From: Escherichia phage fKMPT1
Sequence record: PP620640
Reading direction: 5' to 3' (one strand)
Length of the DNA stretch: 64,000 bases
Position 1 is the first letter of the stretch. Each line of letters opens with the position of its first letter. Positions 11,265 through 38,922 of the stretch are shown piece by piece. Under the pieces are notes generated by a model. That model saw nothing but the letters and a program-made list of their open reading frames with translations. It did not search any database and was not told where the DNA came from. Both the position numbers and the translations under genes were made by a program.

Positions 11265-16666
<5,402 letters not shown>

Positions 16667-30689: not shown

Positions 30690-30965
30690 CAATACATCTG
30701 GTCAATACACTCGCAAGGTGTACCAGTTCTCTTATGAACTTCTCCGCATTTCTACGGAGTGTCGGACTATATCACGTAGCAGGATGCTACCGTTGCACTT
30801 GGGAATGGTCATTAGCTTACCACCCTACTCTACTCAGTTCATACGTTAAGTATGCTTTTCGATAGTCTCTGAACGTTCCTCTCAAGAGGCTTCGCTGCTG
30901 ATTACCGTATCTTCTCAGACTTAGGCTTCCAGCAATTCACAACGTTTTACATGCGCCACTGACGC
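30690..30965 (-). mobile_element. Group I self-splicing intron (ORF-less) in DNA polymerase gene; boundaries approximate
   Basis: On minus strand, in order: P-like gaattgctggaagcc (~30924-30938), Q-like aatcagcagcg (~30893-30903), R-like gttcagagactat (~30862-30874), S-like gatatagtccgac (~30761-30773) giving P7 GACTAT/ATAGTC; P9-like hairpin ctccgtagaaatgcggag; possible P1 pairing exon tttaT with intron Gtaaa; interrupts motif B of polymerase. Confidence 0.75.
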
Positions 30966-33104
30966 ATAAATGCCATTTTTGGCTTTCTTACGACCTTTTG
31001 TAATCTCGTGGAGAAGTTCCTCATCCTGTGTATACCTACAACGAACAATATCTTCTTCCTTGTTCAGACCAAAGTAAATACTGTTCAGTGTATGTGCATC
31101 AGTACCTGTGTATACTTCATAGAGGTCATTCTCAGCATCATAACGAAGGTACTTGTCAGTTTCTGGATTGAGGTACTTATCAAGATGCTTGCAATAGTAT
31201 CTTCCATCCTCTTGCTTGGTAAATTCTACTGACTCTTTACCTTGTGTTACCGCTTTAGTGAACTCTTCATCACCCATAAAGTTACAAAGAAGAACTAGCT
31301 GTGCTGAGTTTTGGTCTACAGAGATGATATCTGTCCCCTCTTCACAAGTCCACACCTCCCTCATAGGTGCTCCATAGACAGCAGCACCAGACGGTACGTT
31401 TACAATACCATATTGTGTCATACGTCCAGTTGAAGTACCAAATACCATTGCACCAGCACTAAGGCGACCATCAGGACGAATCTGGTTCAACCAACCTTTT
31501 TCATCATCCTTTGAGTTCTCAATAGTTCTGCGTCGGTGCATCAAAGTATAGTACTTAGCAATCTTCTGTCCAAGCTCACCTTCAATCGTATCATAAGATG
31601 ATTCAGTAAGTTTTGGTGAAGTACGGATTAAGCAAGGTTCAAGCAAATCTGTGTATTTCTTCACAGACCAGTTATGTTCAATGTACTGGACACCTTCATG
31701 TTCAACATAACTCAAACCACACCTTTCAACCATCTCATCCCACTTAGGATGCTTTGTAATCATCTTTTTGTTGTCTTTGAAACGACAAACTTTGACAGGA
31801 CGACCATCTGAGTCTTTCTTGTAGTTCCAGTCATCTGGAATCCAACCAACTGATTTCAAATAGTCTTTCACAACTGCTACCTGAGTCATACGAGAAACTT
31901 CGAACTCAATTGGTGTATATGGTGCATCAATCAAACCTGTGTAGCGACTTGACTCAAGCTCAAAGTGGTTAACAACATGGCTGTTATAGTACTTCACAGT
32001 TTTAACTGTTTTTACTGGCTTCCAATCTTTGCACTTCTTACCAATCTTTGCATTCAACTCATTGCAAATTGCACGAGCATCCTTCATTGCTACAAAACCT
32101 TCCTTGTACTCTTCACCAGTTACAGAGTTGGTTGGTGTATAGCAATTCCGCTTTTCAATGTTAAAAATCTTTGTAGTTGGCTTACCAAATGGCTTGATTT
32201 CATATGTCTGCATCTCACCGTTACGTACCTGCTGACGATACTTTGTCTTAGGGTACTTGGTAATTCTCTTCAGTCCATCTGCGTGACCAAATGCTTCAAC
32301 ATACTCATTCCAAGCTTTTGCAAACTCTTCTCCAGTGACTTTAACTTTGGTCTTGATAGTTGGAGGAAGATGTGGTTCAACTTCTGAAGCAAGCTCATTA
32401 GTCAACTTGTCAAGTTCCTTTACATGGAACTCCATAAGCTCTTTATCAGCTTTCCAACCATTGATAGCTTGTTGACTCATCCAGAAAGATGTTTCTTTAG
32501 CTCGCATGTAGGTTTCATAAGTATCTACGCCACACTTCTTCAGCTTGAGATATTCATTATCCAGTGCACGTTTAGTTTTGGCGTTAATACGGATATCTTC
32601 TACAACACGAGTGAAGATTTCTGCATTCCACACACCCCAATGTTCAATCTCTGGTTTACGTACACCGACACGAGCACCCCATGCAGCCAAGCCATGAGCA
32701 CCTTTATAGCCTTTTGGAGTTGGTCTATCCATCCATTGAACACGAGATTGGATAAGAGAATCCTGAAAGAAATTACTCCACGGCTTACACTTTGGATTAT
32801 CAAAGTTCCACAAATCAGGTGCAATGTGATTGAAAACCCACCAGTCATACCCCAGACCATTATGGATGCAAAGTCGTTTTGCCTTTAACGCAAACTCAAC
32901 ACCTTCACGCAAGCCACCCTTAATGTACTTGGTATACTTGTGACCGAGGATAGGCTCATCTGTAAAGACCCATACAGGTGGCTCTTCATCGTCAGATTTA
33001 TAGTCTGCGAAAGCCATTACGTGTACTTTAGTGAACTCAAGGAGTAAACCATCAGTTTCTGTATCGCCAACTAAATGTAAGTTTTTAAAATCTACGTTTT
33101 CCAT
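30966..33104 (-). CDS. DNA polymerase, family A (T7-like), exon 1 (3' boundary approximate)
   Basis: 3'-5' exonuclease Exo I motif VGDTETDGL; motif A-like DQNSAQLVL; ends in RKKAKNGIY (first half of motif B); likely true start at second in-frame ATG (MENVD) preceded by GAGGGAG RBS. Confidence 0.75.
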
Positions 33105-33361
33105 TTTTACTCCCTCTAAAATCATTAACCACATACATTACTGCAAAAAATTATAAAAAGCAAGTTGACAATGTACTTGACAAGGTGTTAATCTTTGCGA
33201 AGTGGGTTTTTACTTAAAAGGTTACTTAACAGTTTAACTATACAGATACTTTAAAACTCTTAAAAGATTATTTAATAGTTTTTAAAAAGCTTTAAAGTAT
33301 AACGTATAGAATACGTTAAGATAAAAGATTAAAACTTAATAGTTACTTAAAAGAGGCTTAC

Positions 33362-33784
33362 ATGCAGAAAATGTTTGTTCACCCAGACATAGCTGACTTT
33401 GTTAGAGCTTTGCAGAAGTTGGAAGAACTTGACATTGCTGCTCAACGGGAATATGCTCACCATCACAGGAGAATGGTTGATATACAACATGAAATAGAGT
33501 TGTCTGAAAACTATGAAGATGACTTAAAATGCTCTGTATTTGAGCATATGAAAGATGTTGCTACAGCGAGACGTAAAGCTAAAGACACAGTTGCTTTACT
33601 AGATTCTCTTAAAAAGAGATTGCAAAGTGGTACAGACCTGTGTAATCTAGCGTCACTGATTAACGATGTTGAAACTTCTTGGGATAGACATTACTATCCA
33701 CGTTCTGAAAAGACACTTGACTTTTCTTCATCCGAAAACTTAAAATGTTCTAGAAAGAAACTTAACCAACTGAGAGAGAAATAA
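33362..33784 (+). CDS. Hypothetical early protein
   Basis: 140-aa ORF, first gene after AT-rich divergent control region. Confidence 0.4.
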   Translation: MQKMFVHPDIADFVRALQKLEELDIAAQREYAHHHRRMVDIQHEIELSENYEDDLKCSVFEHMKDVATARRKAKDTVALLDSLKKRLQSGTDLCNLASLINDVETSWDRHYYPRSEKTLDFSSSENLKCSRKKLNQLREK

Positions 33785-33785
33785 T

Positions 33786-34598
33786 ATGAACACTACTGTA
33801 GACCAGATGCTTAAAGAAAAAGGTGTTGACGAAGCATTCTTAATCAATGCCGTAGAAAGCATGGCTATGATTCTTCGTGGAAACAACTATACAGAACAGT
33901 TTATGCCTGCAAGCTATAACTTACCTAAAGACAAGTCTGATAACGGTGCTTTTGCAGAACAGGTTAATATGATGCTGTGTGACAAAAAACTTGCTTTAGC
34001 ATCTATCGTTGTAGGTGTTGATGCTCTTGCAGAGTTCATTTTTTATGAGATGCAGAAAAATGACTATATTGCCATGACCTCTGAAGAAAAAGACTCGCTA
34101 CTACTCTTAGATAATAATGAGTTAGTTGACCTGTTAATTTCGTCAACGAGTGCTGTTATGGCTGCTCTTGAGAAGCGCATGGAAGAGAAGCTGTCACGAT
34201 ATGAAAAGCTTGATTGGGGTGTAGAAGAGTTAAACCCACGAATCAAAGAGATTATCCAGCAAACTAAAGAGTCTTTAGAAGAGGCTGTGAAAGATGATTC
34301 CGTAGCTGATGTAGAACCACTACAGGTGAAGGTTGCTCTGATGATTCCAGCTATCTCTACAATGATGAATATCGTTGCACTAATCCAACTTTCACAGATG
34401 TTGGGTGTAACCATTGAGTTCGTTGAGGAGATGACTGGTGGTGTCAGCATGCAAGCAATCAATGATGTTTTGGTAAACATTGGCGCTTCAATCATTGAAG
34501 AGAAGCTGCGTATTAACTTTGGCGATGATTTTGTGAAGCAAGTATCAGCTATGGCTGAAAAAGAGTATTCACAGATTAATACCGACCAACTGCACTAA
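33786..34598 (+). CDS. Hypothetical acidic protein
   Basis: 270-aa ORF, coupled to upstream gene, followed by terminator. Confidence 0.4.
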   Translation: MNTTVDQMLKEKGVDEAFLINAVESMAMILRGNNYTEQFMPASYNLPKDKSDNGAFAEQVNMMLCDKKLALASIVVGVDALAEFIFYEMQKNDYIAMTSEEKDSLLLLDNNELVDLLISSTSAVMAALEKRMEEKLSRYEKLDWGVEELNPRIKEIIQQTKESLEEAVKDDSVADVEPLQVKVALMIPAISTMMNIVALIQLSQMLGVTIEFVEEMTGGVSMQAINDVLVNIGASIIEEKLRINFGDDFVKQVSAMAEKEYSQINTDQLH

Positions 34599-34615: not shown

Positions 34616-34640
34616 AAGCCTCCTTAGTTGGGGGCTTTTT
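34616..34640 (+). terminator. Rho-independent terminator
   Basis: aagcctcc-ttagtt-gggggctt hairpin followed by TTTTT. Confidence 0.6.
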
Positions 34641-38064: not shown

Positions 38065-38922
38065 ATGTCTAAAGTTGTTAAAATGAAAGCTCCGGTAGAG
38101 AAGTACAATGGTACTGAACGTCAAACTCTGCGTTACCTGCTGAAAGATGTTTGGTTTTATTACCTGAACACTTCACCACGTCCGGGAAAAGGTAAATCCA
38201 TTGATAAGAAATTCCCAGGCAAAGACTGTAACTACAGTGTTTCAATTCTGGCAGAAGATGGTAATAAACTATTTAAAGAGTTTACTAAGTCTAAGAAAAA
38301 CCCAGAAGGTTGGGATAAAGTTACTACTGAAGCAGTTGATGCAGATGACTTCGAAGAGAAGTTTGGTTGCAAACCACCATTTGAAGCAGACACTTACTAC
38401 ATCTTGAAAGTAAGTCGTGCAGCAGCTTATAAAGACGGTGCTGTGTGGACAGCTAAACAGTCATTCCCTGTAATGCTGATTGAAGAAGTAAATGGTAAGC
38501 GTGTAGCTGTTAAACAGCCGATGAAGAAAATCAAAGCTCAAGCATCTGACAAACATGAAGATGACAAGAACTATGATGTAATTCATCCAGATATTGCAGT
38601 TGGTAACGGTTCTTTTGGTAGTGTGATTCTGTCTACTCACTTCTACACTTTTGAGAACAATGTTCTGACAAAACCTATTCAGGAACAGTTTATCATTGAC
38701 ACTCTTGTACCTTACACTGGTGGTAACGGTGCTAACGGTGAACCTGAACTGGATGAAGACGAACTGGCTATGCTTGGTCTTGATGGTGTTGAAGATAACG
38801 GTGAAATCACTGAAGAAGACGCAAAAGACCACAAACCTTCTAATGATTCTGATGATGGTGACGATGAAGACTTGCCAGACCCAGATGACGAAGAAGATGA
38901 AGACTTCGATACAGAAGACTAA
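38065..38922 (+). CDS. Single-stranded DNA-binding protein (T7 gp2.5-like) candidate
   Basis: 285 aa with strongly acidic C-terminal tail DDGDDEDLPDPDDEEDEDFDTED; located in replication module after primase-helicase. Confidence 0.5.
   Translation: MSKVVKMKAPVEKYNGTERQTLRYLLKDVWFYYLNTSPRPGKGKSIDKKFPGKDCNYSVSILAEDGNKLFKEFTKSKKNPEGWDKVTTEAVDADDFEEKFGCKPPFEADTYYILKVSRAAAYKDGAVWTAKQSFPVMLIEEVNGKRVAVKQPMKKIKAQASDKHEDDKNYDVIHPDIAVGNGSFGSVILSTHFYTFENNVLTKPIQEQFIIDTLVPYTGGNGANGEPELDEDELAMLGLDGVEDNGEITEEDAKDHKPSNDSDDGDDEDLPDPDDEEDEDFDTED

Follow-up and report, generated by a model that had tools for sequence, protein, structure and literature searches.

The stretch of DNA examined here, 64,000 nucleotides (nt) of Escherichia phage fKMPT1 (PP620640) and referred to below as the window, corresponds to the first 64 kb of the 87-kb record of Salmonella phage fBSPA4 (OR711204), with 100% identity and equal coordinates. 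Positions beyond the window are given in the numbering of the fBSPA4 record, the remainder of which was searched as locus L011. The phage is a Felix O1-like myovirus of the genus Felixounavirus, subfamily Ounavirinae. Our subject is the gap at 33.1–33.4 kb, one of the switches of gene direction in this genome, and the two genes that follow it on the plus strand, encoding proteins of 140 and 270 amino acids (aa). These are called g140 (33362–33784) and g270 (33786–34598) throughout.

To the left of the gap, on the minus strand, lies a block encoding DNA polymerase, an HNH endonuclease, ligase, dihydrofolate reductase and thymidylate synthase. On the plus strand the open reading frames (ORFs) of 140 and 270 aa are followed by genes for a deoxynucleoside monophosphate (dNMP) kinase, a 66-aa ORF, a T7 gp4-like primase/helicase, a 285-aa acidic-tailed protein and an exonuclease. 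The gene order is shared with Suspvirus SUSP1, Mooglevirus Moogle, a distant metagenomic contig of 87 kb (L005), the Kolesnikvirus phages phiEa104 and SB18, and a Hafnia phage.

An earlier note on this DNA had given the gap a length of 227 bp. This holds for the longest ORF of the polymerase, which starts at 33134, but the Shine-Dalgarno sequence and start codon conserved in relatives point to ATG 33104..33102 (minus strand) as the probable start, with a gap of 257 bp. The Shine-Dalgarno sequence GAGGGAG is found at 33116..33110, and TACTCCCTCT plus CAT is kept in eight aligned genomes. A start at this position, giving a protein that begins with MENVDF, is annotated in Moogle, Mordin and CHB7. 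The start used in GenBank (33125) is probably mis-set, and the alignment favours ATG 33104.

Predicted promoters in the divergent gap

The proposal that the gap is a divergent control region was borne out by comparative analysis of 12 Ounavirinae gaps from at least five lineages, searched with regular expressions, which resolved a candidate promoter on each strand. Together they are predicted to form a pair of back-to-back sigma-70-type promoters, whose −35 elements lie 1 bp apart on opposite strands. In both, the spacer sequences vary among lineages and the spacing is constant. The predicted transcription starts were placed about 7 nt past the −10 element.

The leftward promoter, P_left, faces the polymerase gene and has a −35 element TTGCTT (33163..33158, minus strand), a 17-nt spacer and a −10 element TAATGT (33140..33135), with a predicted start near 33128. 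The pattern TTG(C/A)(T/A/C)(T/A)-N17-TAnn(G/A)T was found at the same position in 10 of the 12 gaps, with −10 variants such as TAGGGT, TAGTGT, TATAGT and TACTAT; the gap of phiEa104 did not match the regular expression. Stronger versions exist in distant relatives (TTGCAA-N17-TATAGT and TTGACT-N17-TACTAT). The pattern is followed, after 22–30 nt, by the Shine-Dalgarno sequence and start codon of either the polymerase gene or an inserted HNH gene.

The rightward promoter, P_right, has a −35 element TTGACA (33165–33170, plus strand), an 18-nt spacer and a putative −10 element TAATCT (33189–33194), with a predicted start near 33201. The spacer contains a second TTGACA (33177–33182) and a TG at 33186–33187, and an A-tract lies upstream (33145–33159). 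The tandem TTGACA boxes reported earlier are exactly as claimed. The −10 element matches TATAAT at three of six positions, with T1, A2 and T6 present in addition to the upstream TG. TTGACA-N17/18-TAnnnT is kept in all 12 gaps, the −10 occurring as TAATCT, TAGTCT, TAATGT, TAACGT or TACATT and the −35 being unchanged throughout. Since phiEa104 and SB18 have just one TTGACA, in the form TTGACA-N17/18-TACATT, the first of the two boxes is identified as the −35 element. No usable −10 element was found after the second.

In the 64-kb window TTGACA-N6-TTGACA occurs once. Five near-matches with one mismatch all lie within coding DNA and were discarded. Genome-wide, TTGACA-N6/7-TTGACA occurs exactly three times, at 33165, 69743 and 79346, always on the plus strand, and the three copies head rightward units in fBSPA4. 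The second copy (69743–69840 of the record, 27744–27841 of L011) precedes ASP4_00105, and the third (79346–79495, 37347–37496 of L011) marks the second divergent junction, in front of the tRNA block. Each copy has A-tracts before it, a TAnnnT 17–18 nt past the first box and CTTWWAAG-like boxes after it, spaced 9–14 bp. In SUSP1 (L045), scanned from 41.0 to 90.7 kb of its genome, the module is present at two syntenic sites (71587 and 82409), and the copy in the polymerase gap is visible in alignments. In Felixounavirus the core of the module varies only in the hexamer that separates the two boxes, so that the second TTGACA is selected as a box.

Divergent promoters had been assumed between genes 96 and 97 of Felix O1, but none was recognisable (Whichard 2010, PMC3185647). 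The 96/97 gap of Felix O1 is the counterpart of the gap at 33.1–33.4 kb, and comparative alignment now resolves candidates for both of these promoters. The same study described a Felix O1 promoter ‘P41’ with the sequence TTGACA-N15-TATAGG (Whichard 2010, PMC3185647). The counterpart of P41 is the module at 79346, and the gap holds a paralogue of it.

Two further observations concern short sequences. Between 65423 and 70529 of the record, seven near-identical intergenic cassettes of ~70–95 bp separate small ORFs. Each contains a GGGGCTTA...TAAGCCCC hairpin and then ...CTTAAACTAGGAGATTCAAAA before the start codon, that is, a repeated unit of terminator and ribosome-binding site. Furthermore, an exact 17-mer, AACGTATAGAATACGTT, was found in six short IMG/VR viral contigs (L024, L025, L026, L032, L033 and L034) that lack Felix O1-like flanks.

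The conserved AT-rich leader

The predicted transcript of P_right begins with a leader of 161 nt (33201–33361, plus strand) that is conserved and has a G+C content of 26%, in line with the AT-rich control region described earlier. It contains CTTWWAAG-like boxes starting at 33213, 33225, 33249, 33259, 33290, 33335 and 33346, the last of which overlaps the Shine-Dalgarno sequence AAGAGG of g140. Four copies in 33213–33353 are exact and three have one mismatch. The density is 15.6 per kb, about 40 times the 0.38 per kb of the remaining 87-kb genome, and 20,000 composition-matched shuffles gave no case with four copies.

Two motifs named in the earlier note fall within this array. Its gttacttaa boxes are present, at 33221–33229 and 33342–33350, each one base off the positions first given, but as a 9-mer they are at chance level (two seen against 1.04 expected, a number equalled in 29 of 100 shuffles). 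They are real only as members of the wider CTTWWAAG-like family. The ctcttaaaaga box is likewise present, at 33257–33267, but its interpretation as a shared regulatory box did not hold; the other exact copies, at 11526 and 60655, lie within coding sequence and give no sign of a common regulatory role.

The gap as counted from the longest ORF (33135–33361, mostly leader) is 86% identical at the nucleotide level to that of SUSP1 and 82% to that of Moogle, which is similar to the 5' end of the polymerase gene (85% in both) and above g140 (77% and 68%), the dNMP kinase gene (68% and 64%) and g270 (58% and 55%). Within the genus, the gap is at least 95% identical in 214 of 259 matching records. Judged from these alignments, the constraint on the gap is much above what two promoters would need. 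No Rfam family matched the gap.

A palindrome, TAACGTAT-AGA-ATACGTTA at 33300–33318, could be a hairpin or an operator. All seven pairs are unbroken in eight genomes and two of them covary (UA/AU 6:2 and CG/UA 5:3), the change from CG to UA being found in three Moogleviruses. Folded as single-stranded DNA it has an energy of −5.4 kcal/mol (z = −3.8). In phage SLAM_phiST56 (L016) the 3-nt spacer (33308–33310) is inverted, TCT for AGA, with the arms unaltered, whereas it is AGA in all 21 IMG/VR Felixounavirus contigs once the loci are oriented. The inversion is the signature of a hairpin-mediated flip, and it is rare.

We read the boxes as predicted protein-binding sites on DNA, because CTTTAAAG is palindromic and because the boxes occur in both orientations in L005. 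Since L005 and the Hafnia phage have boxes but no g140, the boxes do not depend on that gene. Alternatively, the leader could act as RNA, as a structured 5' untranslated region whose hairpin and repeated CUUAAAAG motifs would be recognised by a regulator of the translation or stability of the g140-g270 message. Every box is located downstream of the predicted start, nearly all have one orientation in Felixounavirus, SUSP1 and Moogle, and the last one shares bases with the Shine-Dalgarno sequence. Compensatory changes are seen in the hairpin, and the predicted fold of the leader is slightly more stable than those of shuffles (z = −2.0). However, covariation is limited to the 7-bp hairpin. A structure for the whole leader was rejected, the other predicted helices being invariant or broken, and the lack of an Rfam match points the same way. 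Furthermore, the boxes of L005 have both orientations, boxes also fill a non-coding region of 1.7 kb at 70.8–72.5 kb, and a DNA palindrome such as CTTTAAAG is typical of the sites of dimeric proteins. We regard the RNA explanation as unlikely.

The non-coding region just mentioned (70779–72513 of the record, 28780–30514 of L011) is a stretch without annotated genes and is packed with short boxes, namely CTTAAAAG, CTTATAAG, CTGTTAAG and CTTGTTAG, including 10 exact copies of CTTWWAAG. A cluster resembling these boxes was found at 73.2–73.6 kb in SUSP1.

In the primary origin of phage T7 an AT-rich region comes after the promoters phi1.1A and phi1.1B, and P_right followed by a leader of 26% G+C has the same anatomy. 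The promoter and leader could thus be, or also be, a T7-style replication origin, at which host transcripts from P_right open the leader and prime the T7-like polymerase and primase/helicase, whose genes flank it, with the other two modules as secondary origins. The replisome genes are indeed T7-like (a family A polymerase and a gp4-type primase/helicase), and the minimum of the cumulative GC skew lies at ~33.2 kb. Gene direction changes at the same place, and this explains the skew switch. The conservation of non-coding DNA far beyond promoter needs is in keeping with an origin, as are the threefold presence of the module and the hairpin-forming palindrome with its one case of spacer inversion, but boxes and conservation fit transcriptional control equally well. 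Nothing relevant on an origin in Felix O1 came up in a search of the literature. An origin at this site is in our view improbable.

The g140-g270 unit and its products

The stop codon of g140 and the start codon of g270 are 1 nt apart, and the two genes are translationally coupled. An intrinsic terminator, AAGCCTCC-TTAGTT-GGGGGCTT followed by a T-run, lies at 34616–34640 (plus strand), 17 nt past the g270 stop; a terminator scan gave it a G+C-rich hairpin of 8 bp. The same hairpin and U-run follow the gene in SUSP1, Moogle (where the terminator is annotated) and L005. In phiEa104 a clearly homologous terminator, AGCCCC-TTAATT-GGGGCT-TTTT, follows a 283-aa protein in the position of g270. Since the genes are coupled and a conserved intrinsic terminator closes them, g140 and g270 are taken to be one transcription unit, and their description as the first genes transcribed rightward from the gap stands. 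By sequence comparison, P_right, the leader, g140, g270 and the terminator appear as a conserved, discrete unit that heads the replication block.

The product of g140 has a predicted isoelectric point (pI) of 6.65 and corresponds to ORF97 of Felix O1 and gene 48 of Bas63 (bas63_0048). It is a full-length member of phrog_4039 (function unknown; E 3e-83), and a hydropathy peak of 0.27 (Kyte-Doolittle, 19 residues) does not indicate a membrane segment. Homologues were found in Ounavirinae only, with 49–75% identity in other genera (54% in phiEa104) and an invariant core of MVDxQHEIELSExY, VFxH, RRKxKDT and PRxxKxLDF. The gene is missing from L005 and Hafnia phage SarahDanielle. Its ratio of nonsynonymous to synonymous substitution rates (dN/dS) of 0.035 indicates strong constraint. 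The synonymous divergence of g140 within the genus is low, with a mean dS of 0.09 against 0.21–0.30 in its neighbours, although the sequence sets differ between genes. This continues the near-invariance of the gap and could reflect an additional constraint at the nucleotide level or a recent sweep.

The product of g270, the counterpart of Felix O1 ORF98 and Bas63 gene 49 (bas63_0049), is acidic as stated earlier, with a pI of 4.34 and a net charge of −23. The Felix O1 proteins are reported with 140 aa and pI 7.0 (ORF97) and 266 aa and pI 4.1 (ORF98) (Whichard 2010, PMC3185647). Neither g140 nor g270 has a Pfam, NCBIfam, PADLOC or PDB sequence match, which agrees with the lack of recognisable motifs noted before. 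An exhaustive HMMER search of 1.84 billion representative proteins gave nine relatives of g270, all of ~265–277 aa or fragments, and a second, word-indexed protein search with alignment added one distant relative only. By tblastn, identities are 83–98% in Felixounavirus and ~40% in Suspvirus and Mooglevirus. On these searches, g140 and g270 are orphans confined to the subfamily Ounavirinae.

AlphaFold2, given a seven-sequence alignment, predicted g270 confidently, with a mean per-residue confidence (pLDDT) of 88.2 and a template modelling score (pTM) of 0.86, as 13 helices and no strands; from the single sequence the pLDDT was 42. Foldseek found no match to the model in the PDB and only its own family in BFVD. 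Two hydrophobic helices suggested a membrane protein, a possibility that was rejected; because these helices carry charged residues in homologues, g270 is read as a soluble bundle. At the position of g270, phiEa104 encodes a protein of 283 aa and the Hafnia phage one of 279 aa, for which neither hhalign nor BLASTP detected significant similarity to the g270 family. All positional counterparts nevertheless have 264–283 aa and a net charge of −14 to −25, and the flanking terminator is present in phiEa104. At the C terminus, six of seven aligned members end in (L/I)-H (34587–34598 in the window), and all seven have (F/Y)G(D/E/K)(D/E)F ~25 residues before the end. Both may possibly be docking motifs.

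Within the genus g270 has a dN/dS of 0.135, at the top of its neighbourhood (polymerase 0.018, primase-helicase 0.009, dNMP kinase 0.098). The ratios point to purifying selection on both genes, clearly so for g270, and not to an arms race.

The earlier note had regarded the two genes as early ones. In endpoint reverse transcription PCR (RT-PCR) of Felix O1, ORF96–99, 101 and 104 were maximal at 25 min and the late class at 60 min (Whichard 2010, PMC3185647). ORF97 and ORF98 thus peak together with the polymerase, the dNMP kinase and the primase/helicase and not with the late genes, so that the timing is half confirmed: they do not belong to the 5-min class either.

Most GenBank records of Felixounavirus, and phrog_4251, to which g270 belongs over its full length (E 1e-143), label the 270-aa protein ‘minor tail protein’. 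Assignment to a structural family had been named beforehand as evidence against an early accessory role. Formally such an assignment exists in this label, but the label lacks support and the protein is absent from two virion lists. Gp98 was not among the virion proteins of Felix O1 identified by liquid chromatography with tandem mass spectrometry (LC-MS/MS) (Whichard 2010, PMC3185647). The cryo-electron microscopy (cryo-EM) study of Bas63 lists at least 23 gene products of the virion, which belong to the structural module except for one decoration protein whose gene lies elsewhere. Gene 49 is not among them, and the study also notes several ‘tail’ proteins of the genus as mis-annotated. In favour of the label, a helical density at the tip of the puncture apparatus of Bas63 is still unassigned, but its authors place the responsible gene in the baseplate module. 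Furthermore, g270 is located in the replication module, between the polymerase and dNMP kinase genes and ~10 kb away from where the structural block ends. Its transcript is maximal together with those of the replication genes, and its model has no structural similarity to any tail protein. The function label of phrog_4251 fails all tests applied, because virion proteomics, cryo-EM, gene position, expression timing and fold all disagree with it. That the label is right after all, and g270 a minor tail or virion protein, is very improbable and already largely refuted.

A further explanation, for which the earlier note had seen the typical slot, is that g270, with g140, is a host-takeover or anti-defence factor, for instance one that mimics DNA or that inhibits a nuclease, restriction enzyme or RNA polymerase of the host by sequestering it. 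This was neither supported nor refuted. The acidity and size kept in all positional counterparts, even in those without sequence similarity, speak for it, as does the fact that g270 evolves fastest in its neighbourhood; the 0.135 is, on the other hand, no gene-wide positive selection. The unit comes first after a strong-looking promoter and ends in a terminator, an arrangement that favours high, stoichiometric expression. Phage T7 provides a precedent in its host-directed inhibitors gp2, gp5.5 and gp5.9, which are located among replication genes. However, both genes are fixed within the replication module across the subfamily, and g270 keeps its position in every genome examined, unlike typical accessory anti-defence genes. 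The check for a DNA-mimic fold was negative, as neither the sequence nor the fold of g270 resembles Ocr, ArdA or any solved structure, and PADLOC and Pfam gave no match. The available part of the PhageMaP text (Chen et al. 2024), on a genome-wide knockout of Bas63, names neither gene 48 nor gene 49 among defence counters or triggers. A role against the host is a reasonable guess, though one that we consider rather unlikely.

Some observations concern the surroundings of the unit. The 285-aa protein (38065–38922; pI 4.5) has a very acidic C-terminal tail (…DDGDDEDLPDPDDEEDEDFDTED) that recalls the tails of single-stranded DNA-binding proteins of the T7 gp2.5 type. Its family is phrog_3877 (function unknown), and sequence comparison with Pfam, NCBIfam and the PDB gave no match. 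A group I intron splits the DNA polymerase gene at 30697–31024 (minus strand), with an Rfam RF00028 match at 30742–31024 (59.9 bits, E 7e-14). Alignment to the intron-less polymerase gene of phage SP116 shows an insertion of 267 nt (30963..30697), removal of which gives a single frame of 900 aa with the junction ...KNGIYA/VLFGAGDEKF.... GenBank has two separate ‘putative DNA polymerase’ coding sequences here, and the Felix O1 genome paper reported no introns (Whichard 2010, PMC3185647). ‘Staphylococcus phage SA1’ (UNVERIFIED_ORG) and two ‘Campylobacter’ phage records hold Felixounavirus sequence and are probably contaminated or mislabelled.

Proposed mechanism and comparison with known systems

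The best explanation overall, held with moderate confidence, combines divergent sigma-70 promoters, a regulated leader and a two-gene accessory unit that is not part of the virion. Since the phage encodes no RNA polymerase (Whichard 2010, PMC3185647), the host polymerase must start transcription. Host sigma-70 RNA polymerase would read both back-to-back promoters. P_left would drive the polymerase/ligase/thymidylate synthase block leftward with a leader of ~24 nt, and P_right, a strong-looking copy of the module, would drive the 161-nt leader and then the bicistronic g140-g270 up to the terminator, with read-through to the genes for dNMP kinase and primase/helicase. The second TTGACA, the oriented CTTWWAAG array (~+12 to +145) and the palindrome would be sites for one or more DNA-binding regulators that set the timing or level of these units. 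The products of g140 and g270 would be subfamily-specific non-virion accessory proteins co-expressed with the replication genes, and g270, presumably an abundant acidic helical-bundle protein, most likely acts by binding a partner protein and not by catalysis.

Several points weigh against this explanation. A strict consensus promoter scan found no match on the plus strand of the gap, missing the −10 element of P_right, its total counts were no higher than in shuffles, and the −10 hexamers match TATAAT at only 3–4 of six positions. A search of the literature on Felix O1 promoters and early genes and on Felixounavirus transcriptomes found no mapping of transcription starts, and the RT-PCR data for Felix O1 are endpoint and coarse. 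The nearly uniform orientation of the boxes in Felixounavirus would fit a motif at the RNA level too, the last box may be mere context of the ribosome-binding site, and no candidate for a box-binding protein was identified.

A more far-reaching version can be proposed, in which the thrice-repeated module, with its tandem TTGACA, GGGTTT motif, oriented CTTWWAAG array and palindrome, is the docking platform of an Ounavirinae regulator that links early transcription by the host polymerase with the initiation of replication in the AT-rich leader, with g140 and g270 as partners in the switch. This would resemble a T7-like transcription-primed origin with the host polymerase as the driver instead, and we consider it speculative and quite unlikely.

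Felix O1-like phages are widely used in typing, biocontrol and therapy of Salmonella and E. coli, and their transcription programme is essentially unmapped. New here are the placing of both predicted promoters in a gap where the 2010 genome paper (PMC3185647) found none, and the recurrence of one module at the head of three putative transcription units and across genera. The promoters and the module are targets for start-site mapping, for engineering and in the search for a regulator of the box array, while g140 and g270, as strictly conserved orphans of the replication module, are candidates for functional work. In addition, the ‘minor tail protein’ label, which has spread to most of the 258 phage records with g270, can be corrected.

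In kind, the system is ordinary phage control of early and DNA-metabolism genes. Known systems do not account for the second −35 box inside the spacer, the array of oriented boxes, the palindrome with its covarying pairs or the function of the two strictly conserved orphans. As in Ocr and ArdA, which have about 117–170 aa, g270 is strongly acidic and stands at the head of an early-type transcription unit, and like Ocr it is all-helical; it differs in its 270 aa, in having no sequence or fold similarity to either and in its place within the replication module. With the T7 primary origin the locus shares a promoter followed by an AT-rich tract beside T7-like replication genes, but its predicted promoters are of host and not phage type, and the likeness is one of anatomy only.

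The early promoters of T4 and T5 are strong promoters for host RNA polymerase with a UP-like A-tract and an extended −10. The predicted promoters of the present modules resemble them in the consensus −35 TTGACA, the 17–18-nt spacer, the TAnnnT −10 with upstream TG and the A-tracts. They differ from them in the equally conserved second TTGACA within the spacer and in the presence of three paralogous copies, and P_right furthermore in the oriented CTTWWAAG array and covarying palindrome of a 161-nt leader that is conserved like the core enzymes.

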